Assembly (NCBI GenBank): GCA_903917565.1
Contig: CAIXBB010000002.1
Location: 45,818-109,817, forward strand
Direction: 5' to 3'
Length of the DNA: 64,000 nucleotides
Origin: an uncultured cyanobacterium
Lineage (GTDB): Bacteria > Cyanobacteriota > Cyanobacteriia > PCC-6307 > Cyanobiaceae
Both the position numbers and the translations under genes were made by a program. Positions 8,801 to 52,662 of this stretch are shown here, in pieces (positions within the stretch are counted from its first letter, which is position 1; every line of letters begins with the position of its first letter). The notes under the pieces were generated by a model. The model was given only the letters and a program-made list of their open reading frames with translations, had not been told where the DNA came from and ran no database searches.

Positions 8801-9083
8801 CCGGCGGCGCGCCATGGTTTTCGGCCAGCAGCCCATCCACGTAGATCCGGCCAGGGCCGATGCTGATCCTGCCGCCGGAAACCTTGATCTCAAAGCCGTT
8901 CGGAGTGGTGCGTGGAACAACGGTGCCGTTGAGGCCATCGAGGGATCCGGCCTGCAGCCTGCGGCTCAGCTGAGCCACCCATTCATTCCAGTCGGAGTCG
9001 AGCTGCACCCGGCCCTGCTGCAGGATCACCTCGTGGAAATCACGGCGGGCATCGAAGTTGATGCGACTGAGATCAAAACTCAT
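5844..9083 (-). CDS. large right-handed parallel beta-helix repeat protein; candidate tail-fibre, receptor-binding or anchoring component of the CIS
   Basis: 1079 aa. Conserved-looking N-terminus MSFDLSRINFDARRDFHEVILQQGRVQLDSDWNEW. C-terminal half has repeated PbH1-like units (GNRIEGFQRHGI, GNQVERMG, GNHFSQLG, DNRFEAIG, GNRMLQ, GNVLRR). Sits where Afp13-type fibre genes sit, directly after the gpI-like gene. Confidence 0.75.
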   Translation of the reverse strand: MSFDLSRINFDARRDFHEVILQQGRVQLDSDWNEWVAQLSRRLQAGSLDGLNGTVVPRTTPNGFEIKVSGGRISIGPGRIYVDGLLAENHGAPPDQWDPRLEELAGVDPIPYEEQPYQPYLKDSSYIKQHLGSDAGLPEKGQHLIYLDVWRRDVTALQDPGLIEPAVGSDTTGRRQTVWQVKVLPNENGVAISCASKEDEIPGWKEILAPVSVRLSTHTGDSELIDDRCDVAPNADYTGLENQLYRVEVHDAGTADKATLKWSRDNGIVASRVSHLDPARQTLTVESLKKDDYLCFRPGSWVEVTDDWCLLAGRPGELCRIKQILPETHQLELDRALPAGLFPTDAEQKTDALRNTLVRQWDNDPLMASGALPLPGKGEKLPLEQGIAVEFFHDPPGGLIPTGTHWVFAARSGTASIPVPLVKAPPLGTHHHYARLAVVDFSTGGVTDCRTLWPPQAQGGCDCSVCVTAEGHNQGTATLQQAINRVKESGGTVCLGAGRYDLDEPISVVGARSLRIRGQGWATQLIARVPGPVLAIADGNGVTVENLTLMGSAANADLPTSMLLARNVVDLRVERCNLLGLESEGGTSVGIGLNGTILGATIRHCAIAAGWGLGRVPVLGQPGFVLAARGVSRELVSAELRLENCVLVGRQRGVSLDDMSFHLGHTLLRHNVILVASAEGSAGVVALGGVLPKGDFRIEANLIDSAGDGVQAGVDGLVITANTIVGNRSGRGDGLRLLEGLDPRGPRRVTVEGNRIEGFQRHGIHQTFPLGHLLLRGNQVERMGAGGLVMAEAATAEHLVCEGNHFSQLGLGQREGNVAFAAVQLMAVRQAELRGNAFDDVAPEARSITAVDAVRVLAVGDLQLVDNRFEAIGPPEGIGQYHCLRVAIPFDRVAIRGNRMLQRNASERPGLFPSWGALLVGPDLDRSVRYRPFAAILLDPGRPLSRPGTVAWLLTEHRLAAVERGARDASIEANTVEAVASSAPLMSTLLAGHVRLAGNVLRRQDPEGSPMGLLVELSGDSISATDNLLMANPQVPTMRLQPVARRAAIVMGNTSSGRFSIDDNLSIPVEIDLTNLIGV

Positions 9084-9096
9084 GACGTGAACTCCT

Positions 9097-11346
9097 TCAG
9101 GATTCGTAGAAGATTCCGGCAGACAGGCCGACTCTCAGGTATTCAGCGATCCGCAACCTCAGATTGTTTTCCCTTTGGGGCATCCAGAGATGGTGGAAAA
9201 CGCCCATCTCGCCATCGTCCGTCCCGCCACTCAGGATGGCATCGGGAGTCTGGCGGCTCAGCCTTCCGTAAGCAGGGTTCCCATAACGCAGCGAGGTGAA
9301 CACGGGTCTGGCAGGGACGGGCGCTTCTCCCTTGGGCAGGCAGTGGAAGGGGGCCGGCAGCCTGGAGCCGGGAGGGATCCAGGAGAAGCGAACGCAACCC
9401 ACCTGCCGGCGTGCCGCCCGCACCGGCGCCGCCCAGCCGGCACCGGGCGCCGCCAGCAGGATGCAGTCGGAGATCACGTCCACCGCCGCGGTGAAGATCC
9501 GGCCGATCACGGTGCATCCGAGCAGCGTCAGCTCAGGGCCAGCGACCGGTGGCGAGCCGCTGGCAGGCTCGCTGCCCATCAGAGCCACCAGCGTGGGAGC
9601 GGTGGCGTCGATCAGGCAGGCCGTGGCCTGGAGTGTTGCCGTGGCAGGAGCGCGGATGGCACCCACGATGCAACGCTCAAGCACCAGCGCCTTCAGCGCA
9701 GCGGCCTTGAGCGCATCGTCCGTCACCGTGAGGCTGGCAACGAGCGGATCTCTGGGAGACCCGTCGGGGCGGAGGGCCAGACCAGGCACCAGGGTGCAGT
9801 GGCGAAGTTCCAGCCGTTCCAGACGGTTGTCGACCAGCACCGGCCCACCGGTGATCAACAGGCCCTCGAGCACACAGCAGCTGCCCTGCTCTCCCTCCAG
9901 GGTGAGCCGATCGATGAGCAGCACGGGCCTGAAGCGATTGGCGGCACGGATCGTCACCGTGCTCTCGGCGTTCACCGCCACCGTCAGGGAGCCGAGGGAA
10001 TGGGTGGCGTTGTCGGTGATCTCCACGATCCCTTGCCCGCCGAGGGCTTGCAGGGCGTCCGCGATCGTGGGGAAGACCGGCCAGGGGGAATCCAGCGTGG
10101 CGGGCACGGGCACCTGCACCAGCGGCGTTGGGCCTCCATCCGGTCCCGGTTCGACGCTCAGCGGTCGGTCGTACTCCCCCCCACCGAGATCGGCCTGGGC
10201 GGTGAAACCCTCGTGCCAGCTGAGCCGCACCTCGGCGGGGGTGTCGTCGGGGTCGGGGATCGAGGCGGGCAGGACGATGCGACCCAGCACCGGATCGATG
10301 GCATAGAAGCCGGCAGGCGGCGGCGTGTGGGCCCAGCCCAGGCCGTCATCACCCAGGTGGCAGATGCGGATCTTGGCGCGATCGATGGTCATGTACTCCC
10401 CCTTCTCCTTCACCCAGAGGCAAAGGCTCGGATACGGATCCGTGTCGTTGCCGGGCGGCGGCCCGTACAGGCGCTCCAGATGCTCCTTCGCGTAGCGCCG
10501 GCCGAGGGGCAGCGGCACATTCTGAGGCTGTGTCAGATGGCTGATGGCCTCCTCCCGTTCCGGTCGCTGGAAGAGCGGGGTGTCGTGTCCGAGGGGACTG
10601 GCCCGGTAGCGGCCACTCCCCACCCGGGTAACGCTGCTCTGGGTACGGGGGCAGGCCTCGATCCGCCAGAGGTGAATACCGACGTGGGGGATGTTGTGCC
10701 GGCCCCGTTCAGGATCAATCGGACGCACGTCCACGCTGCGTTGGGCGGTTTCGAAGGGAGTGCCGAGCCAGGCGAGGTCAGCCCCCCGGCGGAGGTCCGG
10801 CGTCTGCCGGACCATGGGCCGCAGGTGGTTCATGTGCTGGCTGGCGATGAGCCGCTGGAAGTACTCCACCGCGCGCGCGGGCAGGCCGATACCGTCCTGG
10901 GCCAGTTGCTCCAGCACCGGGGCCGTGCCCTTGCGCCGGCGCAGAGCGATGGTGCGGGCCACCTCGGAGCGGGAACGATCGCGTGCCTGACCCAGGGGAT
11001 GGAGGGGCTCGTAGCCGACCAGATCGCCGATGTAGGGAATCATCCAATCGGCGCAGGTTTCGATGAAGAAGTCGTCGTAGAGCTGGGCAAAGGATTCCTC
11101 CAGCACCGCCAGTTCAGCGGCGAAGACCTCCAGCAGCGAAGCCAGGGGGCCGCGCGACGCCTTGGCCCGCAACCGGTTCGCCCGTTGCTGTTCGAGGGGT
11201 GTCGGGGCATCGAGCGCCGAGAGTGCCGCGAGCTCGGCGGCTTCGGCTGGGGTGAGCAGCCCCTCCATCGCAGCGGCGCTCTCCTCGTCCCGGAGGCGGT
11301 AGAGCGCCGGGAGCAGGCCCAGGAGGGTTTCGGCGTCGAAGCTCAT
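9097..11346 (-). CDS. baseplate protein, P2 gpI-like N-terminus (Afp12/Cis12-like) with a large C-terminal extension
   Basis: 749 aa. N-terminus MSFDAETLLGLLPALYRLRDEE...DWMIPYIGDLVGY is typical of the phage tail protein I family. Start overlaps the upstream gpJ-like gene (11343-11346). Confidence 0.8.
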   Translation of the reverse strand: MSFDAETLLGLLPALYRLRDEESAAAMEGLLTPAEAAELAALSALDAPTPLEQQRANRLRAKASRGPLASLLEVFAAELAVLEESFAQLYDDFFIETCADWMIPYIGDLVGYEPLHPLGQARDRSRSEVARTIALRRRKGTAPVLEQLAQDGIGLPARAVEYFQRLIASQHMNHLRPMVRQTPDLRRGADLAWLGTPFETAQRSVDVRPIDPERGRHNIPHVGIHLWRIEACPRTQSSVTRVGSGRYRASPLGHDTPLFQRPEREEAISHLTQPQNVPLPLGRRYAKEHLERLYGPPPGNDTDPYPSLCLWVKEKGEYMTIDRAKIRICHLGDDGLGWAHTPPPAGFYAIDPVLGRIVLPASIPDPDDTPAEVRLSWHEGFTAQADLGGGEYDRPLSVEPGPDGGPTPLVQVPVPATLDSPWPVFPTIADALQALGGQGIVEITDNATHSLGSLTVAVNAESTVTIRAANRFRPVLLIDRLTLEGEQGSCCVLEGLLITGGPVLVDNRLERLELRHCTLVPGLALRPDGSPRDPLVASLTVTDDALKAAALKALVLERCIVGAIRAPATATLQATACLIDATAPTLVALMGSEPASGSPPVAGPELTLLGCTVIGRIFTAAVDVISDCILLAAPGAGWAAPVRAARRQVGCVRFSWIPPGSRLPAPFHCLPKGEAPVPARPVFTSLRYGNPAYGRLSRQTPDAILSGGTDDGEMGVFHHLWMPQRENNLRLRIAEYLRVGLSAGIFYES

Positions 11347-19272: not shown

Positions 19273-19624
19273 CACCAACTCCTGGAATCCCCTCGGGCAG
19301 GGTGATGCGCAACCGGCGACCGATGGTTTCGGTGAGTTCGGCGGGCCGCATGGCGCCGTTGGCATCGGCGATGCGCCAGTACTGCAGCGGATCACCGAGG
19401 TAACGGGCGGCGATGGCGTCGATGCGTTCGCTTTCCTCGACGCGATGCTCCTGCAGCAGGGTGAGCTCGTCGGGTTGGGGCAGGAACCGCCGCTCCGAGT
19501 AGCTCACCACGGTGCCATCGGCCAGGGTGTGCTGGCGAAGGGAAAGGCCGTGATATCGGCTGCCGGGTGGATAGAGGGGAGTGGTGAGGCCATTGGCCTG
19601 CAGGAAGGCATCGCGGGGATCCAT
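19262..19624 (-). CDS. LysM-domain tail protein X-like protein (Afp6/Cis6-like)
   Basis: 120 aa. C-terminal LysM pattern ERIDAIAARYLGDPLQYWRIADANGAMRPAELTETIGRRLRITLP. ATGA overlap with the upstream gene at 19624. Confidence 0.75.
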   Translation of the reverse strand: MDPRDAFLQANGLTTPLYPPGSRYHGLSLRQHTLADGTVVSYSERRFLPQPDELTLLQEHRVEESERIDAIAARYLGDPLQYWRIADANGAMRPAELTETIGRRLRITLPEGIPGVGDAN

Positions 19625-20289
19625 CAGCCGATGCCTCCGATGCCGAGGGCGGAGAAGCTGCCGGCCCGGGCCAGGCCGGCGAGCCGTTCCTTGGTCTGCA
19701 GATAGCCGAGGAACAGACCACTGCCGACGTGGCTGAAGCCGAGGTCGTCGACGCTGAGCACCCGCAGGCCGAGGCTCACCTTGGCGCGCAGGGGATTGAG
19801 GGAGGGGTCGAAGGCCTCCTCGGTGATCGAGAAATCACTGAGGCGCACCGGCACGATGCGGCTTTTGCTCCATACGAAAAGCATCAGCGGCGCCTCCATC
19901 GGGGCGATCTCGAGGGTGCCGGAGCTGGCCTGGCGATCGACGCGGCGCAGCTGGGCGCTGGTGGGATGGGCGAGGGCTTCGAGCACCGCCAGCTGGGGCT
20001 GGATGCCGTTCTCCACCGTGGTGCGGTGCTGGTCGGGAAATTCGAGCTGATCGGCGGCATCGATCTCAGCCTCAAGCTTGATCGTTTCCACCGCCGGCCC
20101 CTTGAAGCGCATCGGCTCGGAGCGGTTGCCCCCCTCACCGCCGACGTTGGTGGTCTGCACCTGCAGCGACCTTGAGAGTGAATCGGGGTTGTACTGAAGC
20201 GAGATGATCCGCAACACCCGCGCCGATTCCGGATCGATCAGCACCAGACCGCCTTTGAGGATTCGGGGGGAGTTGGGGAAGGTGGTCAT
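19624..20289 (-). CDS. CIS tube-like / tube-initiator protein (Afp5/Cis5-like)
   Basis: 221 aa. N-terminus MTTFPNSPRILKGGLVLIDPES...SLQYNPDSLSRSL fits the contractile-injection-system tube-protein family found at this position in eCIS loci. High GC like the rest of the operon. Confidence 0.75.
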   Translation of the reverse strand: MTTFPNSPRILKGGLVLIDPESARVLRIISLQYNPDSLSRSLQVQTTNVGGEGGNRSEPMRFKGPAVETIKLEAEIDAADQLEFPDQHRTTVENGIQPQLAVLEALAHPTSAQLRRVDRQASSGTLEIAPMEAPLMLFVWSKSRIVPVRLSDFSITEEAFDPSLNPLRAKVSLGLRVLSVDDLGFSHVGSGLFLGYLQTKERLAGLARAGSFSALGIGGIG

Positions 20290-20399
20290 TGCGGCTACCT
20301 ATAGGTTCTGATGGTCCACGTTTTCGTTGTAGCGAGGTGGGTTGCAGTTTACTGCTGAATTCTCTACTGCTATTTACGGGTGCACTCAGCAGACTTGTA

Positions 20400-20900
20400 T
20401 CACAGGCAACTCTTCGTCAGGAAGATTCCCTTGCCAAAAGCGCCGAAAGCACCACTCATCGAGCTGTTGGGCGGAGCAGCCCCTCCTGCTGCACGTAGCT
20501 TAAAACTAGCGCCATCCTGTTTCTCAAGTTCAGATCTTCTAGCTTCTTCACGCACTGGCACCACGCGACTCTTGTTCCGATTGAACATCAACATAGGCGC
20601 CTCGGCCGGCAGGATTTCCAGCGTGCCCGTCTGTGTCAGCGCATTCAGTGCCAGCAGCTCGGCACTGCTCAGCTTCAGCAGACTCTCCAGAGCTGCGAGT
20701 TGCGGCGCGACTCCAAAGGGAAAGGCATTCGCGTTCTGGTCCGGATGCTCCAGCGAATAGGTGGCGTCGATCTCCTCGTCGCGCCTGATCGACTCGATGG
20801 CCGGCTCTTTGAGACGGAACGGCTGAGCGTACGCAGGGTCATGGATGACAAAGCCACCTTTGATCAGCTTGGGGCTACCGGGGAAGGCGCTGGTGTGTGA
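20400..20900 (-). pseudogene. decayed second copy of the Afp5/Cis5-like tube gene (no start codon, internal deletion, frame disruption)
   Basis: The in-frame part of track ORF 20400-21134 reads ..HTSAFPGSPKLIKGGFVIHDPAYAQPFRLKEPAIESIRRDEEIDA...GVAPQLAALESL...TGTLEILPAEAPMLMFNRNKSRVVPV. It aligns block by block with the intact neighbour (MTTFPNSPRILKGGLVLIDPES...RFKGPAVETIKLEAEIDA...GIQPQLAVLEAL...SGTLEIAPMEAPLMLFVWSKSRIVPV). It lacks the ATG (CAC in its place), lacks about 35 codons (SLQYNPDSLS... block), and diverges after VPV. Lower GC than the intact copy. Confidence 0.65.
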
Positions 20901-20910
20901 CTTCAGGTCG

Positions 20911-21582
20911 TCAATCAGGCACTTGGCCGAAACCCAGCAGAATGACCATCCGGCTGAACACATAAGAGAAGCCCTGCACCTTCGGGCTCTGGTTGCCCTT
21001 GATGGTTTCTTGCCTGACGGCAACAACTCGCGCCACCACAACTGAGTCCAGCCCTGGTTCCTGAACTCCCGCAGCACATCGCGCTCCATCGGTGTAGGGG
21101 AACGGGATACCAGACGGGAATTGTGAAGAGCCAAAGCTCACGGAGCCCGAGCACCACGGATTACCCTCGGGCACGATGCCGTGCAGATAGTTCTTCACGA
21201 TCGGCGCGCGATGATTGCCGGCAATTTGATCTGCGCCCGCTTTTAACTCATCGATTGCCACCGCCAACGCAGCGCGCCCGTGCTTGTTACTACTCATGCT
21301 AGCCGCCGGCATCTGCAAGAAATCAACTGCGCTTGTGGTCTGGATGATCGGTTTCGGGTGATGCAGGCTCCATCACGTCATCTCCCCGTCCTTCCCGTCC
21401 ACCGTCAGTAGCTGACGGTTCTGGTCCAGGTTCTGCGCTTGGAACAACCCTACCGCGCGATAGGTCTCGTTATCGAAGACCCCATTGGATCCGTCGTCGG
21501 CAAGATAGCCCCTGTGCGCCAGCAAGCTCTGGACTTCCTTGACCTCGGGGATTGGATCGCCTGTTTTAAGCAGTCTTGCCAT
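20911..21582 (-). pseudogene. decayed peptidoglycan-binding (PG_binding_1-like) + TIGR02594/NlpC-like cell-wall hydrolase gene
   Basis: ORF 21373-21582 (KEVQSLLAHRGYLADDGSNGVFDNETYRAVGLFQAQNL...VDGKDGEMT) is a PG-binding repeat. It ends at a TGA (21373-21375) that is in the same frame as ORF 20911-21318, separated by 18 sense codons. The second part carries NHRAPIVKNYLHG..EGNPWCSGSV (hydrolase-family motif). Expected downstream motifs are split between frames (NQGW in one frame, KGNQSPKV in another). Confidence 0.6.
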
Positions 21583-21914
21583 TTCCGCACCCTTTTCCTG
21601 TCATATTCGTATTTCAAAATTGAGCCTGACCCCGTTGATACTTGCCATGCGAGTCAACTCGATGACTGATTTAATATTTCAAAATTTCCGGAATACACCT
21701 TTCACGCTTGCATCCCTGAGGTGCTCTCGCCCCTAATCCCGGTTTCGTAATATGGTTTGGAAAGTCATTTTTATCCTTCACTTATCTCCATTAAGTCCGA
21801 TTATCGCACCTTGCCGCTCGCTATTAACGTGGTCCCCAATTCCCATGCTTCCCAGCTATTGCTTTCTATATGGATCCCAATTGCTGCTCGAGAGAGGGTT
21901 ATCTCAAACCATGC

Positions 21915-22442
21915 TTACTCGACACCGCAGGCGAATTGAAGTACGACTTCAAAGTCATGCTTTAGGTCTAGAATCTTGCCAAGTTGTGTATCGTAGGTTG
22001 AAAACCCGCCTACGGACTCGAGAATCTCAAGACAATCCCAAAGAACCCGAAGGGCGTGAATGCATGCGTGCGCCTCCCCCACGAAAGAAAAGGAAGCTCC
22101 AGCTCCCTCATCAAAGATCAGGATTTGGATCCACAGCTTCTCCTCATTGAGTTCCACGGTTCTGAAGAGTCGTCGCGCCTCCGCCTCGGTAATACCTCGA
22201 GCTTTCGCAATCCCAAAATAATCACGCTTATACAACTCCAGCGTAGGATGTCGAGCGATTAAATCAGATGCAAGCCGTTGCTTTAGTTGTTCTTTGTTCG
22301 GATCAATTGAGTCTAGATCGGCCGAATCTGGCGCTTTATCCGAAGTTCTTTTCAGCTCTTCCATTTTCTGATGGTATGCCTTATGCCGATCAAGGCCCGC
22401 TGGAAGGCGAATTAGATCAAATCCGTAGCTCATTAGCTTCAA
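21915..22442 (-). CDS. hypothetical cytoplasmic protein; candidate immunity/antidote for the adjacent effector
   Basis: 175-aa intact ORF, low GC, 34 nt downstream of the effector stop, same strand. No signal peptide or TM helix. No recognisable domain. Confidence 0.6.
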   Translation of the reverse strand: MKLMSYGFDLIRLPAGLDRHKAYHQKMEELKRTSDKAPDSADLDSIDPNKEQLKQRLASDLIARHPTLELYKRDYFGIAKARGITEAEARRLFRTVELNEEKLWIQILIFDEGAGASFSFVGEAHACIHALRVLWDCLEILESVGGFSTYDTQLGKILDLKHDFEVVLQFACGVE

Positions 22443-22476
22443 TCCTCTTTCAGTGAAAACAACAATTTCTTTGTTA

Positions 22477-25002
22477 TCATTTTATCACCGCTCCAATGCC
22501 AGCTTTGTCTAGTGCCTCCTTAAGTGGGGAATTTGGACCAATTTCTCCGTTACTTGGGTTTTCATAGAAGTGCCATTCGGTACGACTGACCTTGCCAGCC
22601 TTCATCAGTTCAACATCCTTGTCGATCTCCTCTTGAAGGCGTGTTGACCAGTTCTGTTTGCCGAACTTCGCTTCTCGTGAAACGCGATCACCATGGGTAA
22701 AACAATCGATGTCTCGCCGTCCCGAATCCGCGGAGAGAGCTTGCTTTTGCCCGCCAAATTCTTTGCGTAGCGCATCCTCGGCTTCTGGCCAAGATTTAGG
22801 AGCTAACGGAGGAGGCGCTAATCGGCCTTCTTCATCCCTCAGTCTGTTGTTGCGGATTCGCTCCGCATCGCGTTCGTTTTTCCACTTCTCTGCAGACTCT
22901 CTATTCCGCGCCGTTTTCTCGAGCAAGGCCTTACGTTCTTCTCCTTGAGCATTAACCGCTTTCAAGCTTGCTTCTCTTGATCTTTCTTCTGCATTCAAAC
23001 GCTTTATATCCAGATCCCTGATCTTTGCATCACTTAGATTCCGTTCTTGCTCGATCTCCTCTAGACGCTGCGCTCTGGATCTAGTCGGCACTTCAGCCTT
23101 CGGCTCAGTCTTGACTGCCGTAGGTTCTGTGGACTTAGGATCGGGCTTGGCCGGATCGGGCTTCACCGGCTCGCTCTTGCCGACCGGCTCGCTCTTGACG
23201 ACCGGGTCTGACTTGACGACTGGTTCCGGCTGGATCGGTTTAGGGTTGACGACCGAGTCTGACTTGACGACTGGTTCCGGCTTGAACGGTTTGGGGCTGA
23301 CGACCGAGTCTGACTTGACGACTGGTTCCGGCGTGACCGGTTTGGGGTTGACGAACGAGTCTGACTTGACGACTGGATCCGGCTTGACCGGTTTGGGATT
23401 GACGACCGGGTCTGACTTGACGACTGGATCCGTCTTGGCCCGGTTGGGTGCGGATAGTTCAGTAGCTTCAGATACTGCCGAAGGTCGCGCGCCGCCACCC
23501 GCGCCAAGACTTAACATAATAATTGGTTCCATCCATGTCATAAACAAGCCCCGAACCTTCGCCTCCTCGAGAGCATGATCATTTACCTGATGGAAGGTAA
23601 CGTGGTGATGGCCTGAATCGACCCAATCCTCTAACCAGTTTAAAATCGTGGTCTGCTCGTTGAGGAATGTATTACAAGTGTCCAGTTGATTGGCCGCTTT
23701 TTCATAAGTGGGGCCAAGGGCATCCCGCTTATTATAATTGTCGAATAGATCCTTGTTATTAGCATAAGCCACTTTGTCTTTTTTCGCAATTGCTTCCCTA
23801 AGCTGCTTTTCGGCATCAACGGCAATATTGCAAGCCTCGATCCAGTACTGAAACCATATTTGGAAATGTTGGTGACCGTTAAGCAGGTTAGACGGGTCTG
23901 AGGCGGCCAACAGAAACGCATCTCGCCTAGATTTCCATTGTATGGCAATATCAGCTGTGGGTATTTGATCAATGGGACGAAGTGTGGTCGCATCCAAGTT
24001 ACCAACCTTAGCTACTCCTGAAGCACCTGCGACAGCGTCCGCTACCGGCGAAGACTTGGTAACGGCTGAGCCCGAAAGCGGCCCCGGAGTGGATTTTGTG
24101 ACGGCCTGCGTTTCCACGGAATCTATGAGCCTCGCGACACGATTGCTTGGCAAGGGATCAATTTGCAGAGCTATGGTAAGAAGCTTCTGGCGAGCATACA
24201 AGTTCAGCGCCGATAGCTCCTCATGTGCATCGCTGTCACTCATTTCAGCCACGGCGCGCACTGCGCCCGACCAGTCACTTGAATTTATCGCGTCATTGAA
24301 TAGCAAGGCGAGTTTGGCCCCCTCTCGTTGCAGTCTTGGTGCATTGATGGACGTCGGAAATGGTGTTTTATCGGACTCTCTTGCGAGTGAATGTTCGATT
24401 TGCGAACTGCTGCCCGACTGTTGCACCACATGCGTCAATTCATGGGCAATCAAGCGTCGGCCCTCATGCGCCTGCGGACCGTAGTGCCCTGCGCCGAACA
24501 CAATGCTGTTGCCTACCGTATAGGCATGAGCGTTCACCTCCCGAGCCGATAGGTCGGCAGCCGCATCCACATGCACCCGTACGCTCGAAAAGTTGTGGCC
24601 GAAGCGCTGTGCCATGTCCTGCTGCAACGTCGGTTCTAGCGGCCTCCCCGGCCTGGCGAGAACGCGATCTACGCTGGCTGGAGCTGTTTCTTCCTGTCCG
24701 GTTACTTGTTCCGTGAAGCGCCGGATGCGCGGGGATGTGTCGCTGACGGCAGGATTTGAAGGCTTAGCCATCACCTCATCCGCAACCCGATCCGCTTCCT
24801 GTTCCAGCGGGTCGTTGCTCGCGCCGATGGTGAGCTTGGTCTGGATGAGTTTCTTGCTCGTGCTTTCCGCACAATCGCCGGTCAGCGACGAAGTCGGCGA
24901 GCCGCAGGCGCGCTTGCGATGCAGCAGCAAACCGGTAGGTGTCGAACTGCTCAACGACTGTGGCTTGGCGCCTTGTGTCTGCAAGGGTGCGGTGGTGCTC
25001 AT
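22477..25002 (-). CDS. DUF4157-domain (zincin-like HExxH) CIS cargo/effector protein with tandem-repeat linker, coiled-coil and C-terminal PD-(D/E)xK-like toxin module
   Basis: 841 aa. DUF4157 hallmarks DPLEQEADRVADEVM, LEPTLQQDMAQRFGHNFSSVRVHVD..A..AYTVGNSIVFG and LIAHELTHVVQQ (HExxH codons about 24430-24444). Five 17-aa Pro-rich repeats, then a Lys/Glu/Arg-rich coiled-coil. The last ~106 aa contain GRRDIDCF...RVSREAKFGKQ. Confidence 0.85.
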   Translation of the reverse strand: MSTTAPLQTQGAKPQSLSSSTPTGLLLHRKRACGSPTSSLTGDCAESTSKKLIQTKLTIGASNDPLEQEADRVADEVMAKPSNPAVSDTSPRIRRFTEQVTGQEETAPASVDRVLARPGRPLEPTLQQDMAQRFGHNFSSVRVHVDAAADLSAREVNAHAYTVGNSIVFGAGHYGPQAHEGRRLIAHELTHVVQQSGSSSQIEHSLARESDKTPFPTSINAPRLQREGAKLALLFNDAINSSDWSGAVRAVAEMSDSDAHEELSALNLYARQKLLTIALQIDPLPSNRVARLIDSVETQAVTKSTPGPLSGSAVTKSSPVADAVAGASGVAKVGNLDATTLRPIDQIPTADIAIQWKSRRDAFLLAASDPSNLLNGHQHFQIWFQYWIEACNIAVDAEKQLREAIAKKDKVAYANNKDLFDNYNKRDALGPTYEKAANQLDTCNTFLNEQTTILNWLEDWVDSGHHHVTFHQVNDHALEEAKVRGLFMTWMEPIIMLSLGAGGGARPSAVSEATELSAPNRAKTDPVVKSDPVVNPKPVKPDPVVKSDSFVNPKPVTPEPVVKSDSVVSPKPFKPEPVVKSDSVVNPKPIQPEPVVKSDPVVKSEPVGKSEPVKPDPAKPDPKSTEPTAVKTEPKAEVPTRSRAQRLEEIEQERNLSDAKIRDLDIKRLNAEERSREASLKAVNAQGEERKALLEKTARNRESAEKWKNERDAERIRNNRLRDEEGRLAPPPLAPKSWPEAEDALRKEFGGQKQALSADSGRRDIDCFTHGDRVSREAKFGKQNWSTRLQEEIDKDVELMKAGKVSRTEWHFYENPSNGEIGPNSPLKEALDKAGIGAVIK
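23190..23440. repeat. tandem repeat, 51-nt period, about 5 copies, inside the effector CDS
   Basis: The string tctgacttgacgac recurs starting at 23207, 23258, 23309, 23360 and 23411 (exact 51-nt spacing). It encodes 17-aa units KSD(S/P)VVNPKPxxPEPVV on the minus strand. Confidence 0.9.
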
Positions 25003-25259
25003 GTCCCGATCTCCTTGCCGATGCCCTGCGCCACGTTCTCCCCGACGCGCTGGGGCTTTGATCCCTGCTCAAACTGCACGCCGTTCACGTGCATCCGCGA
25101 CAGGTCTCCCCTGTCCCTCAGGTCTGAAATCACATCACGATCCGCGAAAACCCGCCCCAGCTCCTCCCGCAGCCCCTCGGCAATAGCGTGCCGATGTTCA
25201 CTGGGAAAGCCGTTGAGCACCAGCCGGTCGATGTGAATGATCACCCGCTTCATGGCCAA
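24999..25259 (-). CDS. small conserved-looking CIS-associated protein (possible effector adaptor/chaperone)
   Basis: 86-aa ORF. Stop overlaps the effector start (ATGA at 24999-25002). Start overlaps the end of the AAA+ ATPase gene. N-terminus MAMKRVIIHIDRLVLNGF. Confidence 0.6.
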   Translation of the reverse strand: MAMKRVIIHIDRLVLNGFPSEHRHAIAEGLREELGRVFADRDVISDLRDRGDLSRMHVNGVQFEQGSKPQRVGENVAQGIGKEIGT

Positions 25260-27187
25260 CCCCGGGTTTCTGCTGCGGCCAGCGGCCGCTCCCGCTTGCT
25301 GGCCTCGCTCTGGGCCGCCGCGAACAGCTGCTCCATGCCCACGGGCGTGCCGGCTTCGGCGGCCAGGAAGGCAGCGGCGAGGGCGATGTTGCGGATGTTA
25401 CCGCCGGCCATCTGCAGGCGGGCCAGTTGGTTGGGGTCGACCCCATCGAGCGGCGTGCCCGCCGGGAACACCCGCCGCCAGATGGCCGCGCGCTGCTCGG
25501 CATCCGGGAAGGGGAAGCTGACCACGAAGCGCAGCCGCCGTTGGAACGCCGTATCGAGCGCATCCTTCTGGTTGGTGGTGAGGATCGCCAGGCCCCGGTA
25601 GCTCTCCATCCGCTGCAGCAGATAGCTCACTTCGATATTGGCGTGGCGGTCGTGGCTGTCCTTCACCTCGCTGCGTTTGCCGAACAGGGCATCGGCTTCA
25701 TCGAACAACAGAATGGCGCCACTGTCTTCGGCGGCTTCGAACACCTGGGCCAGGTTCTTTTCGGTTTCGCCGATGTACTTGCTCACCACCGCCGCCAGAT
25801 TGATGCGGTAGAGATCCAGCTGCAGCTCCCGCGCCAGCACCTCGGCGGCCATCGTCTTGCCGGTGCCGCTCTCGCCGGCGAACAGCACGGAGATTCCCAG
25901 GCCTCGGTTCCCCTGGCTGGCGAAGCCCCAGTGCTCATACACCGTCAGCCGGTGCTGCACCTGGGAGGCGATCTGGCGCAGGGTGTCCTGCTGCGCCTCC
26001 GGCAGGATCAGATCGTCCCAACAGGCCGCGGACTCGATCCGCTGGGCGAGATGTCCCAGCTGCGAGCGGTGATGCCCCCGGCAGGCGCGCCAGAGCTGGG
26101 CGGCCCCTGCCTCCGCTGGCTCGCTGGCGCCGCCGCTCAGGCTGCGGGCCAGGCGCTGGATCTCATCGCTGCTGAAGCGGAATTCGGCCGCCAACCCCTC
26201 CAGCACCGGGCCCAGCTTCGGTGCGGCCTGGCCAACGGCCTGCTGCCACAGGGCGCGCTGCTCGGTGCGCGTTGGTTTGGGCACCGCCGCGCGCAGATCG
26301 TCCCGCCGGCAGGGCAGCGGCTCCGGCCCCGCCACCAGGGTGACCCCCACCACCCGTTCGAGAAACGTCAGGGCCGCGTGGCCGGTGGTGGCATCCTGCT
26401 GCTCCACCAGCAGGGCGGCGCTGATCAGGCTGGCCTCCCGCTCCCACAGCCGCTCCAGGGCGTGCCGCTCCATGGGGTTGGCGGGGATGTCGTCAGCCGC
26501 CAGAACGAACAGGCGCAGGCCCAGCTGGGCGGCCACCGCCGCCGCCACATCCCGCTGGCCCGGCCCATCGTTGCCGGTGAGCTGCACCAGGGGCAGCGGC
26601 GATCCCCGCCGTTGCAGGGCCTCGGCGATCCGCTCGGCCAGCAGGGCCTGGGAGGGGGCCATCACCGTGGGGCAGGGCACCGGCAGGAGCAGCGGCGTCA
26701 GACGGGGGTCCGGATCGTCCACCCCGGCCAGGTGGTGCAGCACCCGCTCATCGATGCGCAGACGGGCGTTCACCACGGTGGCGTCGTCGCTGGCTTCGAT
26801 CAGGCGCCAGTGCCGCAGCGGCCGGCCCGGTGAGAGGGCACTCCAGTGCGGCTCGCCCAGCACCGCCAGGGCCAGCCCGAAGCTCGCCCACGGGCGTTGA
26901 TTGCCGGCCTGGGAGTGGGCGCAGAGGGCGGCGATCTCCCCATCCATCTCAACCCCGGCCGTGAGCAGCAGCAGCTCGCGCTCAAATGGCGACAGGCCGA
27001 AATCGGCGCAGAGACGATCGATCGCCGCGGGCTGCTCCATGGCCTGGCGCGCCGCTGCGATCGCCGCTTCAGCGGCGCGGCCATCGCCGCCCTCGAGCAG
27101 CTCCTTGATCCGGGCCAGTTCCCCCGAGAGCACCCGCTGGTTGGCCTCGCTCCAGGTGGTGTTGCGGATGCCGGTGGCGACGCTCAT
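25250..27187 (-). CDS. AAA+ ATPase (Afp15/Cis15-like CIS assembly ATPase)
   Basis: 645 aa. Walker A GESGTGKTMAAEVLA, Walker B AILLFDEADALFGKR, sensor/arginine-finger region ILTTNQKDALDTAFQRRLRFVVSFPFP. Large N-terminal non-ATPase region, as in eCIS ATPases. Confidence 0.9.
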   Translation of the reverse strand: MSVATGIRNTTWSEANQRVLSGELARIKELLEGGDGRAAEAAIAAARQAMEQPAAIDRLCADFGLSPFERELLLLTAGVEMDGEIAALCAHSQAGNQRPWASFGLALAVLGEPHWSALSPGRPLRHWRLIEASDDATVVNARLRIDERVLHHLAGVDDPDPRLTPLLLPVPCPTVMAPSQALLAERIAEALQRRGSPLPLVQLTGNDGPGQRDVAAAVAAQLGLRLFVLAADDIPANPMERHALERLWEREASLISAALLVEQQDATTGHAALTFLERVVGVTLVAGPEPLPCRRDDLRAAVPKPTRTEQRALWQQAVGQAAPKLGPVLEGLAAEFRFSSDEIQRLARSLSGGASEPAEAGAAQLWRACRGHHRSQLGHLAQRIESAACWDDLILPEAQQDTLRQIASQVQHRLTVYEHWGFASQGNRGLGISVLFAGESGTGKTMAAEVLARELQLDLYRINLAAVVSKYIGETEKNLAQVFEAAEDSGAILLFDEADALFGKRSEVKDSHDRHANIEVSYLLQRMESYRGLAILTTNQKDALDTAFQRRLRFVVSFPFPDAEQRAAIWRRVFPAGTPLDGVDPNQLARLQMAGGNIRNIALAAAFLAAEAGTPVGMEQLFAAAQSEASKRERPLAAAETRGWP

Positions 27188-28524
27188 TTCACCGCCATCC
27201 GCTTGTTGAGAAATTCGGGCGGTTGCTTGGTCCTATCCACCGATGGACTCTCAATGCCGTCGATCCGCAGCCGCACCAGATGACCCAGCGTGCCCGTGGG
27301 GGTGAGCTCTGCTTCCTTCATCAGGAACTCCAGCTTGTCGGTGCTGTCGCTGGGGATCGCTTTGGGCTTCACGCCCCGCCCACCGACCAGCGCCATGACC
27401 TGCTGCCCCGGCCGCAGGCGGGGCTGGAACTTCACCGTGAAGCTGATGGCGCCGCTGGCGTCTCGAGAGACGCTGGTGGGCAGGCTTGTGATCTCCGGAG
27501 CCAGCACCAGCGCCAGATCATTCGAGTGCTGCAGCTCGGTGGCAGCGGCCCCCACGGTCCGCTCCATCCGCACACCCACCCGGTAGATCCCCACGGGGAA
27601 ATCCGCCGCCCTTGCCACCGGCACCTGGAACCGGAGGGTTCGTGCCGGGTCGTCGGTCGACTCGGCCGGCCCCTCCGCAAGTCTGACGGCATCGATCTGG
27701 AAGCGATCATTGCTGAGCACGGCCACACGGTTGCTGCCATCGAGGTGATGGCCCTGCAACTCGATCGTCGCCCCCAGGCGCGTCATCGGCTGCCCGTCTG
27801 CCGGCACCACCGCCGTGAGGGTGGGCACCGCGGGCTCCATGGTGGCCTGCACGTCCACGCCGGGATCGCGCGGTTGCCCGGGCACCACCCTGCCGCGGCT
27901 GAGCACCGGCAGCGGAGCCCGCGCCGGCTCGTCGGTCTGGATCAGAACAACGCTCGCCCGGTAGGTGGTGGAAGGCCTGAAATTGCTGAGCGTGGCTGAC
28001 CACAGCTTGGTGAGTTCTTCGCTGCTCAGCATGTCCGGGGTGATCCGGATCCGCTCGATCTGGTGTTCCAGGCCCGAGGCGGCGAGCGCCTTTCCGAGGG
28101 CCGTCGCTGGGGGGCTCGAGGGCGGATCGAGCAGCGTGCGAATCCTGGTCCGTGAGAACTCCGGCCGTTCGTGCAGTTCCTGCATCGCCAGGCCCAGCAG
28201 GATCTCTCCCTGCAGATCGGCGGCGCTGTAGGCGGAGAGCAGGTAGTGCAGATCGATCGCCAGCGGCCTCTGGCTCAACCGCTGGCGACCCGAGGCATCA
28301 CGGCTGGGCAGATCCTGATTGCACCAGCCGGCGTTGGTGGTCACCTGGTGCAGAAACAGATTCAGCTGTGGCACCTCCGTGCCGCGCACCACGCGGTCGG
28401 GAGGCAGCACACTCACCTTCACGCCGTTGCCAAGAATCCTGATCGTGGCATCAGCACTCAGCACTTCACTCAGCTGCTTCTGCATCACGGAGGTCACCGC
28501 CGCGATGGCCATGGCATTGCTCAT
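27184..28524 (-). CDS. DUF4255-domain protein (Afp16/Cis16-like tail terminator/cap) with long C-terminal extension
   Basis: 446 aa. N-terminus MSNAMAIAAVTSVMQKQL...LNLFLHQVTTNAGWCNQDLP...PLAIDLHYLLSAY matches the DUF4255 pattern. About 250 extra beta-rich residues follow. Confidence 0.8.
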   Translation of the reverse strand: MSNAMAIAAVTSVMQKQLSEVLSADATIRILGNGVKVSVLPPDRVVRGTEVPQLNLFLHQVTTNAGWCNQDLPSRDASGRQRLSQRPLAIDLHYLLSAYSAADLQGEILLGLAMQELHERPEFSRTRIRTLLDPPSSPPATALGKALAASGLEHQIERIRITPDMLSSEELTKLWSATLSNFRPSTTYRASVVLIQTDEPARAPLPVLSRGRVVPGQPRDPGVDVQATMEPAVPTLTAVVPADGQPMTRLGATIELQGHHLDGSNRVAVLSNDRFQIDAVRLAEGPAESTDDPARTLRFQVPVARAADFPVGIYRVGVRMERTVGAAATELQHSNDLALVLAPEITSLPTSVSRDASGAISFTVKFQPRLRPGQQVMALVGGRGVKPKAIPSDSTDKLEFLMKEAELTPTGTLGHLVRLRIDGIESPSVDRTKQPPEFLNKRMAVK

Positions 28525-30000: not shown

Positions 30001-30525
30001 TCAGGCGGGCTCGGAATACTCGACTTCGCTGGGCTCGGTCACGTCGTAGTCACGCTCCCAGCCTTCGTTCTCGAGCTTGATGTGCTGAATCGCCACGGCG
30101 TTGGCGTTGGCGTCGAGGTCGGGCAGGGCCTGGAATTCCGACACCCAGCAGCGGAACAGCTTGTAGGCCAGCGCCAGCTGGCCGGCCTCGTTGTAGACCT
30201 CCAGGATCAGATCCTTGCGGAAATTCTTCAGCGATACTTCCGCTCCCAGACCCGAACCGAAGTTCCACACCTTGTTGGCCCACTTCTCGAACTCGGTGTC
30301 ATGGGTGACACCACGCTCTAGCTGAATCGCCTCGAACTTGGTGCGGCCGGGCGATTTTCGAGACGTGGAAGGATCGCCGCCCTCGCGGTGCTCCACAAGC
30401 TCCGTGCTGCGCTTGAGTGCCCCCACCTTGGAGATCCCGGCCACGTAGCGGCCATCCCACTTCACCCGGAACTTGAAGTTCTTGTAAGGGTCGAAACGCT
30501 GGGCATTGACACTGAACTGGGCCAT
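30001..30525 (-). CDS. phage tail tube protein, T4 gp19-like (Afp1/Cis1-like inner tube)
   Basis: I call the internal start at 30525 (MAQFSVNAQRFDPYKNFKFRVKWDGRYVAGISKVGALKRSTE...), preceded by AGGAGAC. The longer track ORF (to 30918) overlaps the sheath gene. FKFRV..DG....G.SKV is the hallmark of this tube family. Confidence 0.9.
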   Translation of the reverse strand: MAQFSVNAQRFDPYKNFKFRVKWDGRYVAGISKVGALKRSTELVEHREGGDPSTSRKSPGRTKFEAIQLERGVTHDTEFEKWANKVWNFGSGLGAEVSLKNFRKDLILEVYNEAGQLALAYKLFRCWVSEFQALPDLDANANAVAIQHIKLENEGWERDYDVTEPSEVEYSEPA

Positions 30526-30536
30526 GGGGGTGTCTC

Positions 30537-33176
30537 CTAGGTGGCGATCTGGCCGGCGATCTGCTGGAAGCTGATCACCACGAATTCGGCGGGTTTGAGG
30601 GGAGCGAAGCCCACCAGGATGTTGACCACCCCCAGGTTGATGTCGTTCTGGGTGGTGGTCTCCCGGTCGCACCTCACGAAGTAGGCCTCGCGGGGACTGC
30701 GCCCCTGGAAGGCCCCCTGCCGGAACAGGTTCTGCAGGAAGGCGCCGATGTTGAGCCGGATCTGGGCCCAGAGCGGTTCGTCGTTGGGTTCGAACACCAC
30801 CCACTGGGTGCCCCGGTAGAGGCTCTCCTCCAGGAACAGGGCCAGCCGCCGCACGGGCACGTACTTCCACTCGGAGGCCCGCTGATCGCTGCCGTCGAGG
30901 GTGCGGGCGCCCCAGCACACCTTGCCGTAGGCGGGGAAGGTGCGCAGGCAGTTGATGGCGATCGGGTTGAGCACGCCGTTCTGGCCATCGTTCAGGGGCA
31001 CCTCCATCTGTTGCACGTTTTTCAGGCTGGCCTCAGTGCCGGCAGGAGCTTTCCACACCCCCCGGTCGCTGTCGGTGCGGGCATAGAGGCCGGCCATGGT
31101 GCCGCTCGGGCCAACGTTGCGCAGGCGGTAGTCATTGAGCGGATCGGGGATCAGCAGCCGGGGGAAGTAGAGCGCGGCATTGCGGCTGCGCAGATCACCG
31201 TCGCCATTGAGCCAGTTCCTCACCTCCTCCACCGAGTCGAGATCGTTCGGGGGATCCACCAGCAACATGGCCCGTCGATCGCTGCAGTAGTTGGCCGCGG
31301 CCTTGATCAGCGTGGCGCTCTTGATCCGGGCGGCGGCAGGGATGGCATCGAGGGCATTCGGTTCGATCACCATCGAGGCCCTGGGGATGCAGAGGATGTT
31401 GAACAGGTCGATGTCATCCAGCATCCGCATGGCGGCGATGAGCTCAGGCACCCCCGGCAGGTCTCCGTCGACACCCTCCGTGCCTGCCTTCTGGGCCGTT
31501 GGCTGGGCCGTTGAACCAACTTTTCCTCCCCCCAGCCGGTAGGACTGGACGTTGGCGCTGGCGCTGTCGAGCGCCAGATCTGTGACGGTGGTGGTGTCTG
31601 GGGCAGCAAAGCGGACCTGCGCGGCTGTGGTGCCGCCAGCCATCATCACCAGGTGCTTCCCCGCACCTGACTCCTCCTGCACCAGCACCCGGGCCTCGGT
31701 GAAGCTAGGACGGCGAGCGGGGTTCGCTGCCCGGATCGCCTCCTGCAATCCTGCGGCGGCGGCGCTCGGGTCGGTAGCGGGAGCGGCATTCGCGAAGGTG
31801 GCTTTGAAAGGGCCATCCGCTCCGATGCTCACCTGAACCGCCTGGCCGGCGGCAATGGAGAAAGTGGTTGGCAGGGTATCGGAGAGCGTCGCCTCGATAG
31901 TGTCCGGGGCAGCAAAGCCGAGATTGTCGAAGAGGGCATCAGAATCCTTCTTGCTAAGCGCCAGGGTCTTGGCCGGATCCCCTGAGAGCACCAGCAGCTG
32001 CTTGAGGGAGCCGGTTTCAAGGGGCAGCACGATGGCCTTTTTCAGAGCGTCGGAACCAGTGGCGGCGCGGATTTCCTTCTGGAGTTCCACGGCGGCCGCG
32101 TTGAGATCAGCCATCGGTCCGGCGAGATTGAGCGTCTGCGTCGTGCCTCCTGGCGATTCGGTCACATCCACGTTGCCAGCGCTCAGCGGCAGATTGGCGG
32201 CGATGTCTGTGGAGAGCAGCCCCTTGAGGGTTTGCGCCTTCGCCGTGAGGCCGAGCTGGTCTGCGATCGATGCGGGCTCAGCCTCAAAGCGGATCCTGGC
32301 TCCGGGCAGGCTGGGGCCGGCAAGAATCCGCAGCTTCTCGTTCACGATCTGCACCCGTGCCTGGGCGAAGGCCCGATCGTCAGGCCGGCAGGACTGGATC
32401 GCCTGCTCCAGCTGAAGCCGCGCCTCCACCAGGGTCCTGGGTTGGCCGCTCAGCTGGGCGGTTCCGCTTCGCCCCTCCTCCCCGATAAGGCTCACCAGAA
32501 GGTTCCCCTGCTTCGCCCTGACCCCGGTGAAGCCGCTGAGATCACGCGAGAGCGTGCCGGTGGCCAGTGGCGGTTCCGTTCCATTCACCGTTTTGATCCT
32601 GATCAGCTTCGAGCCGCTGGTGTCGTCGTTCACCAGCGTCTTCACGAAGCTGGGGGAGGCTGGATCCATCGAGAGGTTGAAGAAACTCTCGGAGGTCACC
32701 ACCTGTTCCTTGCCCCCTGCCGATCGGACGAGAGCCACGGTGAGGTTGAACCGCTTGGGAAGCGACGCCGGTGGGTCATCGATGCTGATCCGCAGTCCTT
32801 GCAGCCCGTCGTTGGCGCCCCCCCAGGCTCCAGGGTTGATCGCGGACACCTTGAGGACCGTCGAGCCGCCGATGGCGCTGGCGATCTCGACATCCGCGGT
32901 GCTCGTGCTCGAGGAGACGGCCCTGGCGATCCAGGCCTCGGCGCCACCGTTCTGGAAGAACTGATGGATGGCATAGCTCGCCTCGCTGCGCGGATCGAGA
33001 CCACCGAACAGCCGCTCGAACTCCGCCAGGCTGAGCACCTGCACGGCCCCATCGCTGGGCCCTTGCGCAAAGTGGTCCACGAAGGCCGTGATTGAGGTGG
33101 CCACGCCGGTGATGGTGCGGACACCGCTGGAAACTTCCTGGATGTAGACCCCTGGATGGGTCAGGGGAATCGGCAT
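30537..33176 (-). CDS. contractile tail sheath protein (Afp2-4/Cis2-like) with a large internal triplicated insertion
   Basis: I call the start at 33176 (MPIPLTHPGVYIQEVSSGVRTITGVATSITAFV, canonical sheath N-terminus). C-terminal sheath block KAPAGTEASL...LNPIAINCLRTFPAYGKVCWGARTL..., ending REAYFVRCDRETTTQNDINLGVVNILVGFAPLKPAEFVVI. 879 aa. Confidence 0.9.
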   Translation of the reverse strand: MPIPLTHPGVYIQEVSSGVRTITGVATSITAFVDHFAQGPSDGAVQVLSLAEFERLFGGLDPRSEASYAIHQFFQNGGAEAWIARAVSSSTSTADVEIASAIGGSTVLKVSAINPGAWGGANDGLQGLRISIDDPPASLPKRFNLTVALVRSAGGKEQVVTSESFFNLSMDPASPSFVKTLVNDDTSGSKLIRIKTVNGTEPPLATGTLSRDLSGFTGVRAKQGNLLVSLIGEEGRSGTAQLSGQPRTLVEARLQLEQAIQSCRPDDRAFAQARVQIVNEKLRILAGPSLPGARIRFEAEPASIADQLGLTAKAQTLKGLLSTDIAANLPLSAGNVDVTESPGGTTQTLNLAGPMADLNAAAVELQKEIRAATGSDALKKAIVLPLETGSLKQLLVLSGDPAKTLALSKKDSDALFDNLGFAAPDTIEATLSDTLPTTFSIAAGQAVQVSIGADGPFKATFANAAPATDPSAAAAGLQEAIRAANPARRPSFTEARVLVQEESGAGKHLVMMAGGTTAAQVRFAAPDTTTVTDLALDSASANVQSYRLGGGKVGSTAQPTAQKAGTEGVDGDLPGVPELIAAMRMLDDIDLFNILCIPRASMVIEPNALDAIPAAARIKSATLIKAAANYCSDRRAMLLVDPPNDLDSVEEVRNWLNGDGDLRSRNAALYFPRLLIPDPLNDYRLRNVGPSGTMAGLYARTDSDRGVWKAPAGTEASLKNVQQMEVPLNDGQNGVLNPIAINCLRTFPAYGKVCWGARTLDGSDQRASEWKYVPVRRLALFLEESLYRGTQWVVFEPNDEPLWAQIRLNIGAFLQNLFRQGAFQGRSPREAYFVRCDRETTTQNDINLGVVNILVGFAPLKPAEFVVISFQQIAGQIAT

Positions 33177-36024
<2,848 letters not shown>

Positions 36025-52653: not shown

Positions 52654-52662
52654 CCGCAGGCC

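Follow-up and report, generated by a model that had tools for sequence, protein, structure and literature searches.

The DUF4157 domain is reported as a marker of toxins carried by extracellular contractile injection systems (eCIS); it stands at the N-terminus, and a long linker separates it from the toxin domain at the C-terminus (PMC8213781, PMC11297309). In AlgoCIS the tube lumen is filled by the DUF4157 proteins Cgo1 and Cgo2, which are released when the particle contracts, and particles assemble also without these cargo proteins (PMC8894135). Loading of Cgo1 and Cgo2 requires their disordered N-terminus, and DUF4157 is dispensable for it (bioRxiv 10.64898/2026.05.27.728243). The DUF4157-led eCIS-associated toxins (EATs; Geller et al. 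2021, Danov et al. 2024) are equivalent to the "PVC-metallopeptidase" polymorphic toxins of Zhang et al. 2012, in which that domain is proposed to process or release the toxin. Some EATs have adjacent immunity genes, which points to antibacterial use, and most come without a recognisable one; Geller et al. call the missing immunity genes beside antibacterial eCIS toxins a puzzle (PMC8213781). The C-terminal parts of 983 of the 1130 DUF4157-marked eCIS proteins of Danov et al. are unannotated (PMC11297309). Here we analyse a DUF4157 gene of 841 codons in a 64,000-nt stretch of contig CAIXBB010000002.1 from an uncultured cyanobacterium; we refer to the whole stretch as the window. We consider it probable, from sequence comparison, structure prediction and analogy to the systems above, that the gene encodes an eCIS cargo toxin ending in a nuclease-like domain and that the 172-aa open reading frame (ORF) behind it encodes its immunity protein.

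The overall design of the window protein is already published. It resembles Cgo1 and Cgo2 in its disordered N-terminus, central DUF4157 domain and variable C-terminus, and in its position inside an eCIS cluster beside an AAA+ ATPase gene. With the EATs of Geller et al. and Danov et al. it shares the N-terminal DUF4157, the long linker and a C-terminal, here putative, toxin. A first-pass annotation of the window, made from the sequence alone, had called this architecture unusual, a claim that is not supported: published proteins of this kind normally join a disordered N-terminus to DUF4157 and, over a long linker, to a toxin at the C-terminus, and the architecture is typical. The differences lie further along the chain. 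The repeat linker, the helical hairpin and the nuclease-like tip of the window protein have no counterpart in Cgo1 and Cgo2, whose C-terminal parts bear no relation to its own; Cgo1 is a predicted metalloprotease, and the passages of the AlgoCIS study used here mention no immunity gene. Unlike most EATs, the window combines, on a DUF4157 protein, a predicted restriction-endonuclease-fold tip with a conserved partner gene. What is new is a widespread toxin family of predicted restriction-endonuclease fold that lacks a Pfam or NCBIfam model, the apparent use of this family, judged from its carriers, in eCIS, Rhs and CdiA systems alike, and two unannotated partner families.

The DUF4157 part of the protein is as first annotated, including its use as an eCIS toxin marker, on which the literature agrees (PMC8213781, PMC11297309). 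Pfam PF13699 (eCIS_core, the former DUF4157) matches aa 121-197 with E = 4.1e-30; the score is 104.2 bits where 22 would suffice, and the match spans positions 1-77 of the 79 in the profile. The zinc-binding HExxH is intact (H187-E-L-T-H191, 24430-24444), and the motifs quoted in the annotation, DPLEQEADRVA, QQDMAQRFGHNFSSVRVHVD, YTVGNSIVFG and IAHELTHVVQQ, are all present. The full-length AlphaFold2 (AF2) model has a mean predicted local distance difference test score (pLDDT) of 55 and is confident in three regions only; used as a Foldseek query, it finds generic helical hairpins and BstYI only. Within this model the eCIS_core region (aa 109-197) has a pLDDT of 78-89. Ahead of it, aa 1-62 have no secondary structure and a pLDDT below 50 and are predicted to be disordered, and a helix, DPLEQEADRVADEVM, follows at aa 65-79 with a pLDDT of 62-74; S, T, A and P are abundant in the N-terminal region. 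A disordered N-terminus ahead of DUF4157, as in lumen cargo of the Cgo1/Cgo2 type, is found here by prediction only, and by that analogy we infer that aa 1-120 serve as the loading sequence.

The compact C-terminal domain is the part that carries our reading. The last 113 residues hold a domain of about 106 aa which, modelled with AF2 from a 52-sequence alignment, reaches a pLDDT of 96.9 and a predicted template modelling score (pTM) of 0.88; within the full-length model its pLDDT is about 90. In the domain model a helix (residues 10-21 of the domain) is followed by three strands (24-30, 33-41 and 46-52), a second helix (59-73), a strand (79-85), and then another helix and strand, and this order includes the core alpha-beta-beta-beta-alpha-beta topology of the PD-(D/E)xK superfamily. 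The putative catalytic residues fall on helix 1 (E742), strand 2 (D766) and strand 3 (E777 and K779). The best Foldseek matches in the PDB are all enzymes of the PD-(D/E)xK superfamily: SfsA (4dav; probability 0.99, template modelling score (TM) 0.54, E = 8e-3), AF1548 (1y88; probability 0.99, TM 0.52), EcoT38I, EndoMS, BstYI (TM 0.56) and BamHI. The viral library BFVD yields, as its best hits, a "Type VII secretion protein" (TM 0.59) and proteins annotated as PD-(D/E)XK nucleases (TM 0.61). Because the core topology, the placement of E, D and ExK, and the structural neighbours (TM 0.52-0.61) are concordant, each of them moderate, the model supports a PD-(D/E)xK nuclease-like fold, which bears out the first-pass reading of this domain, and we infer a metal-dependent nuclease activity from it.

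The sequence of the domain agrees with such an active site. Across 150 family members, in which we counted residue conservation (Table 1), the family motif is E-x20-R-x2-D-x10-E-x-K-x-G within about 106 aa. The motif had been annotated before as RRDIDCF-x10-REAKFGK; both strings are there, and the spacing needs correction, since seven residues separate them and the ten-residue interval is the one from D766 to E777. The other aspartate of the first string, D764, is not conserved, the commonest residue at this position in the family being Y (23%).

The family to which the domain belongs is large. An exhaustive HMMER search of 1.84 billion representatives, each standing for a cluster at 50% identity, finds 687 of them at E <= 1e-3 and 68 at E <= 1e-10; a word-indexed protein search with the C-terminal domain finds nothing, so that the family surfaces in the exhaustive search only. 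In all 150 matches listed of the 687, the domain ends at most 13 residues from the C-terminus, on carriers of 99 to 2086 aa. RHS repeats are present in 16 of 146 full-length carriers, eCIS_core in ten and a teneurin-type YD-shell in three. Searches of plasmids with tblastn add CdiA-like haemagglutinin proteins of Burkholderia cenocepacia and Rhizobium beringeri, at whose ends the domain stands, and SpvB/TcaC-N proteins of Aliiroseovarius. Since the domain is C-terminal throughout and occurs on Rhs, CdiA-like, SpvB/TcaC-type and DUF4157 carriers, it behaves as the tip of a polymorphic toxin would. One unannotated eCIS C-terminus can now be assigned to a family of at least 687 clusters with a predicted nuclease-like fold.

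Named families do not cover it. Pfam and NCBIfam scans of 52 domain members give no consistent family, and PADLOC gives nothing. Single members produce sub-threshold hits to DpnII-MboI (E = 0.006), Tox-REase-7 (E = 0.061) and MvaI_BcnI (E = 0.08), and the window domain itself has no hit to Pfam Tox-REase-2, -3, -5, -7 or -9 even at E <= 10. Sequence searches of the PDB with the whole protein, the C-terminal domain, the 52-sequence profile and a profile of the immunity candidate bring up nothing of use, the only profile hits being at chance level (E >= 0.4). The Tox-REase domains of Zhang et al. 2012 are alike in being small C-terminal tips of Rhs and filamentous haemagglutinin proteins that bear the signature E, D, ExK, and no PVC-type delivery is listed in that study's table rows for Tox-REase-1 to -7. 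The consensus of the window family, G-x3-E ... [VI]D ... ExK ... Q, resembles that of Tox-REase-7 (PF15649; GxxxE, IxD, ExK, Q), but only one of the 52 members touches PF15649, far below the cut-off. PoNe (Jana et al. 2019, PMC6688995) is likewise a PD-(D/E)xK polymorphic toxin domain used by several secretion systems, and it is a demonstrated Mg-dependent DNase with a cognate immunity protein. Its motif is Kx3GExnGIDx2YxnYx3ExK and its toxic fragment is about 166 aa long (PMC6688995); comparing the motifs by eye, we find in the window family no GID, no Y-x3-ExK and other spacing, and we rejected an assignment to PoNe. We also set the window toxin apart from PT6, a DUF4157-linked toxin of Nachmias et al., on the basis of its description: PT6 acts in the periplasm only and causes filamentation, unlike a nuclease.

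The second half of our reading concerns the gene that follows. The first-pass annotation had noted a downstream ORF of 175 aa. The ORF is there, and its length is better given as 172 aa, an ATG at 22433 being a likelier start than the TTG at 22442 because the ATG has the sequence AGAGGA 9 nt in front of it and is the start used in a gene call from a metagenome (P0151). We collected eight related loci (L001-L004 and L006-L009). Four come from a scan of reference genomes with an alignment of close relatives, which reached metagenome-assembled genomes labelled Paracoccaceae, Candidatus Sulfotelmatobacter, unclassified bacterium and Terracidiphilus, and four more come from look-ups of homologs of the 172-aa protein. 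In 8/8 a homolog of the 172-aa protein, at 40-67% identity and E-values from 1e-39 to 1e-87, stands directly 3' of the gene that joins DUF4157, the hairpin and the toxin domain, and because of this the ORF is likely to encode the cognate immunity protein. Where these loci hold further DUF4157 genes, the C-termini are of other kinds and no member of the 172-aa family stands behind them. A large protein collection holds 25 homologs, all of them unnamed.

When the domain sits on Rhs- or CdiA-linked proteins, a different conserved family, of about 190 aa, follows it directly (4/4 loci, which come from unrelated contexts, 28-37% identity). This family has no Pfam match, neither partner family matches any Pfam Imm family, and we rejected homology between the two, as BLAST and hidden Markov model (HMM) comparisons show no similarity. 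The ~190-aa family is probably a second, undescribed immunity family, to judge by its place. Each clade of the toxin has its own conserved partner at this place, and for this reason we regard the slot after the domain as a partner slot across the whole family. Read by eye, the sequence of the 172-aa protein shows no clear signal peptide, in keeping with a cytoplasmic site of toxin action.

The same comparisons speak to the possibility that the 172-aa protein is a chaperone or adaptor for loading rather than an immunity protein. Danov et al. speculate on chaperone-like functions around DUF4157 effectors (PMC11297309), and the 172-aa family is unlike any known immunity family. We nevertheless regard a loading role as very improbable. 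The occurrence of the 172-aa gene follows that of the toxin domain rather than that of the N-terminal loading part, the family is missing from loci whose DUF4157 effectors are of other kinds, and where the domain is linked to Rhs or CdiA another conserved small protein fills the slot, as expected of toxin-specific immunity; the G+C content at third codon positions (GC3) of the 172-aa gene, finally, matches that of the toxin module.

This base composition suggests that the toxin and its partner came to the locus together. GC3 is 0.82-0.88 in the structural genes, and within the effector gene it declines from 0.69 (aa 1-200) through 0.49 (aa 201-520) to 0.44-0.46 (hairpin and toxin domain), with 0.47 in the immunity gene. 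Because the toxin end and the immunity gene have a GC3 of 0.44-0.47 against the 0.82-0.88 of the structural genes, we read them as an exchanged cassette. At the level of the window, G+C falls in a mosaic fashion at positions 20200-24400, while the operon around them has about 70%. Milder dips, to 0.62-0.66 against about 0.70, occur at 8001-10000, 30001-34000 (including the sheath region), 38001-40000 and 52001-56000.

Downstream of the immunity gene lies a decayed stretch. It contains a truncated copy of the CIS_tube gene (20400-21134, minus strand), with 37% identity to the intact gene, an internal deletion of 34 aa and no C-terminus, which is probably a remnant of the donor locus. The part at 20911-21582 (minus strand) has a lone 69-aa PG_binding_1 ORF (E = 2e-8) followed by overlapping ORFs in two frames without a Pfam match; these ORFs may be the remains of a second, cell-wall-directed effector. 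We had considered the ORFs at 20911-21318 a decayed cell-wall amidase gene from a motif, and dropped this for lack of Pfam support. The layout of the stretch is identical in locus L013 and in the contig of P0151, and its recurrence in these two other assemblies indicates that it is not a sequencing error. These compositions and remnants are most simply explained by recombination that brought in part of a foreign eCIS locus. The exchange would have one boundary inside the DUF4157 domain or shortly behind it, and its other end would have decayed since.

One could go further and take the cassette itself for a decaying, non-functional remnant of that foreign eCIS locus. The truncated tube copy and orphan ORFs directly downstream would fit, and so would a base composition foreign to the locus. 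This we find hardly credible, since the 841-aa and 172-aa frames are intact, all near-invariant family residues are present together with the HExxH, and the genes recur identical or near-identical in independent assemblies.

Several points weigh against the reading of the gene as a nuclease-tipped eCIS cargo with its immunity protein. PD-(D/E)xK toxins include tRNases, and this means that the fold alone leaves the choice between a DNA and an RNA substrate undecided. Foldseek gives no match at E <= 1e-3, and TM values of 0.5-0.6 are borderline. The active-site residues of the model are placed by secondary-structure element and not by three-dimensional coordinates. No Pfam Tox-REase match is significant, the Tox-REase-7 one given above being the best. 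The 172-aa family has no match in Pfam, the PDB or PADLOC and resembles nothing known, the cassette adjoins decayed genes, and the Pfam name of DUF4157, eCIS "core" domain, leaves room for a structural rather than a cargo role.

The first of these points leads to a variant in which delivery and immunity work in the same way and the C-terminal domain is an RNase, for instance a tRNase, and not a DNase. Some PD-(D/E)xK-fold CdiA-CT toxins cleave tRNA, such as those of Burkholderia pseudomallei 1026b and E479, and the domain described here is also found on CdiA-like Burkholderia proteins; the fold assignment, as said, does not fix the substrate. However, the best structural neighbours are DNA enzymes (DNA-bound SfsA, restriction endonucleases, EndoMS), no solved CdiA-CT tRNase is among the top 50 PDB matches, and PoNe, the characterised toxin family of the superfamily that we cite, is a DNase (PMC6688995). 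We consider an RNase unlikely.

The name of the Pfam domain leads to another, in which the DUF4157 protein serves the structure or assembly of the particle, or works within the producing cell, perhaps degrading its DNA before lytic release. Besides PF13699 now being called "eCIS core domain", the gene stands in the middle of the structural operon and not at its 3' end, and Geller et al. raise a contribution of eCIS toxins to lysis of the producer (PMC8213781). Comparison of loci argues otherwise. Loci that are otherwise syntenic differ in what comes after DUF4157, related loci have from one to three DUF4157 effectors with different C-termini in the slot that the ATPase and second tube genes enclose, and the C-terminal domain is common to Rhs and CdiA toxins. 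A dedicated immunity gene points to protection of the producer rather than to its killing. The DUF4157 proteins of AlgoCIS are lumen cargo without which particles assemble (PMC8894135). A structural or producer-directed role is very unlikely in our judgement.

We return to the DUF4157 protein as a delivered toxin. By analogy to AlgoCIS, the effector would be loaded through its N-terminus, helped by the adjacent ATPase, and contraction would expel it into the target cell. There the C-terminal domain would cut nucleic acid in a metal-dependent manner, DNA being the likeliest substrate, and the 172-aa protein, in the cytosol, would bind the toxin domain and protect the producer and its kin. DUF4157 may process or release the toxin and is probably not needed for loading. 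The toxin-plus-immunity end would have been acquired by recombination from a donor of lower G+C. With an immunity gene beside it, the toxin must be capable of harming cells like the producer, and bacteria are therefore likely to be among the targets; the locus thereby suggests bacterial targets for this eCIS. It offers a compact candidate toxin-immunity pair, of about 110 aa and 172 aa, with four obvious residues, and should be useful for annotation and for the engineering of eCIS cargo, while the current picture of these systems is unchanged.

The eCIS clade of the nuclease may differ from its relatives in more than its carrier. Because this clade always has a hairpin of about 90 aa, and the unrelated 172-aa protein instead of the ~190-aa immunity family, one may ask whether it is adapted to delivery through the tube lumen into bacteria, with the hairpin, perhaps together with aa 365-502, as a device for packing or membrane translocation. 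We put this forward tentatively and hold it to be doubtful. If true, it would make the locus a clear example of an antibacterial eCIS with an effector-immunity cassette exchanged through recombination inside a DUF4157 gene.

The hairpin (aa 640-728) is the segment first annotated as a charged coiled-coil, which agrees with two long helices predicted at aa 640-684 and aa 688-728 with a pLDDT of 83-92. It is kept beside the C-terminal domain in DUF4157-linked relatives, at 37-55% identity, and the short Rhs- and CdiA-linked carriers that we checked do not share it. The five Pro-rich repeats of 17 aa that had been annotated in front of it are recovered by Tandem Repeats Finder (23195-23448) with a 51-bp period, 5.0 copies and 91% matches. 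From about aa 500 to aa 639 the model has no secondary structure and a pLDDT below 40. The near-identical locus L013 has four copies of the 51-bp repeat for the five of the window, a difference that is either a copy-number polymorphism or an assembly collapse.

Between DUF4157 and the linker, a region of about 300 aa had been annotated as free of motifs and as ending in a hydrophobic stretch. Its lack of a Pfam or PDB match (aa 198-518) stands, and the hydrophobic end is weak: the 19-residue Kyte-Doolittle maximum at aa 483-503 is only 1.16, and a transmembrane helix there is not convincing. AF2 places helices in aa 198-500 at an unreliable pLDDT of 26-54. An 844-aa homolog in locus L007 is 56% identical over aa 1-209 and aa 619-841 and unrelated in between, and aa 367-502 recur at 50% identity in P0176, a protein of 516 aa that begins with a PG_binding_1 domain and has a different C-terminus. 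For these two reasons the middle region is, by sequence comparison, a swappable module, in which aa 365-502 appear to be a mobile pre-toxin module. The latter segment (23497-23908) is helical, with the pattern GHQxFQIWFQxWI ... AYANNK ... ILNWLEDWVDS and a closing helix that is moderately hydrophobic.

Table 1. Features of the effector locus and of partner genes in related loci, with conservation of residues in the C-terminal domain. TRF, Tandem Repeats Finder.
Feature	Position	Strand	Basis or remark
Effector gene	22477..25002	minus	841 aa plus stop codon, ATG start (ORF list)
N-terminal region, aa 1-120	24643..25002	minus	AF2, composition
eCIS_core (former DUF4157) domain, aa 121-197	24412..24642	minus	Pfam PF13699
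Variable middle region, aa 198-518	23449..24411	minus	AF2, homolog comparison
Proline-rich disordered linker, aa 519-639	23086..23448	minus	TRF, AF2
Charged helical hairpin, aa 640-728	22819..23085	minus	AF2, relatives
Putative C-terminal toxin domain, aa 729-841	22480..22818	minus	Family search, AF2, Foldseek
Putative catalytic E742	22777-22779	minus	Conserved 93%
R763			Conserved 99%
Putative catalytic D766	22705-22707	minus	Conserved 100%
Putative catalytic E777	22672-22674	minus	Conserved 99%
Putative catalytic K779	22666-22668	minus	Conserved 99%
G781			Conserved 100%
K795			Conserved 92%
D796			Conserved 97%
W810			Conserved 98%
H811			Conserved 85%
F812			Conserved 100%
Candidate immunity gene, 172 aa	21915..22433	minus	Starts 43 nt after the toxin stop codon
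Decayed cassette remainder	20400..21582	minus	PG_binding_1 ORF, overlapping ORFs, tube-gene remnant
Small 86-aa ORF	24999..25259	minus	Overlap of 10 nt at the ATPase stop, of 4 nt at the effector start (ORF list)
AAA+ ATPase	25250-27187	minus	Pfam context
Pvc16_N	27184-28524	minus	Pfam context
Sheath	30537-33218	minus	Pfam context
CIS_tube (second tube gene)	19624-20289	minus	Pfam context
~190-aa family member, L010	7155-7754		
~190-aa family member, L011	8635-9225		
~190-aa family member, L014	2806-3384		
~190-aa family member, L015	2793-3362		

The effector gene is part of an eCIS operon, in which the genes for the AAA+ ATPase and for the second tube protein enclose its slot. On the minus strand it is preceded, in order, by genes for the sheath, a gp19-type tube protein, two unassigned ORFs, Pvc16_N, the AAA+ ATPase and an 86-aa ORF, and it is followed by the 172-aa ORF, the decayed stretch, CIS_tube, a 421-aa ORF and the spike (Phage_base_V). 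Further downstream on the same strand are a 106-aa ORF, gp25, two Baseplate_J proteins and a DUF6519/beta-helix protein. The first-pass annotation had found no toxin extension on either the spike or the 106-aa protein, which it took to be PAAR-like. For the 189-aa spike this is so, as it consists of Phage_base_V alone; the 106-aa ORF has a weak DUF4280 match only (E = 0.057). By the HMMs that we built, the 64-kb window contains a single DUF4157 domain, a single copy of the C-terminal domain and a single member of the 172-aa family.

The locus is not confined to this assembly. An identical 841-aa protein (P0177) exists in public collections, and L013, from another metagenome, carries the same locus at 99.7-99.9% DNA identity. 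Exact look-up of the 841-aa protein returns no contig record, and that of a four-repeat variant (P0001) returns one. The 86-aa ORF, called as an 84-aa gene in L013, has no family match; its slot holds a weak homolog in L006/L007 (30% identity, E = 2e-7) and is without one in L003, and the ORF may have an accessory role. Two or three DUF4157 genes stand in tandem in L004, L006/L007 and L009, with C-termini that differ, one of them Aspzincin_M35-like. In L006/L007 the tandem genes occupy the slot between ATPase and tube genes alongside a Peptidase_S8 gene and a UPF0175/DUF3368 pair.

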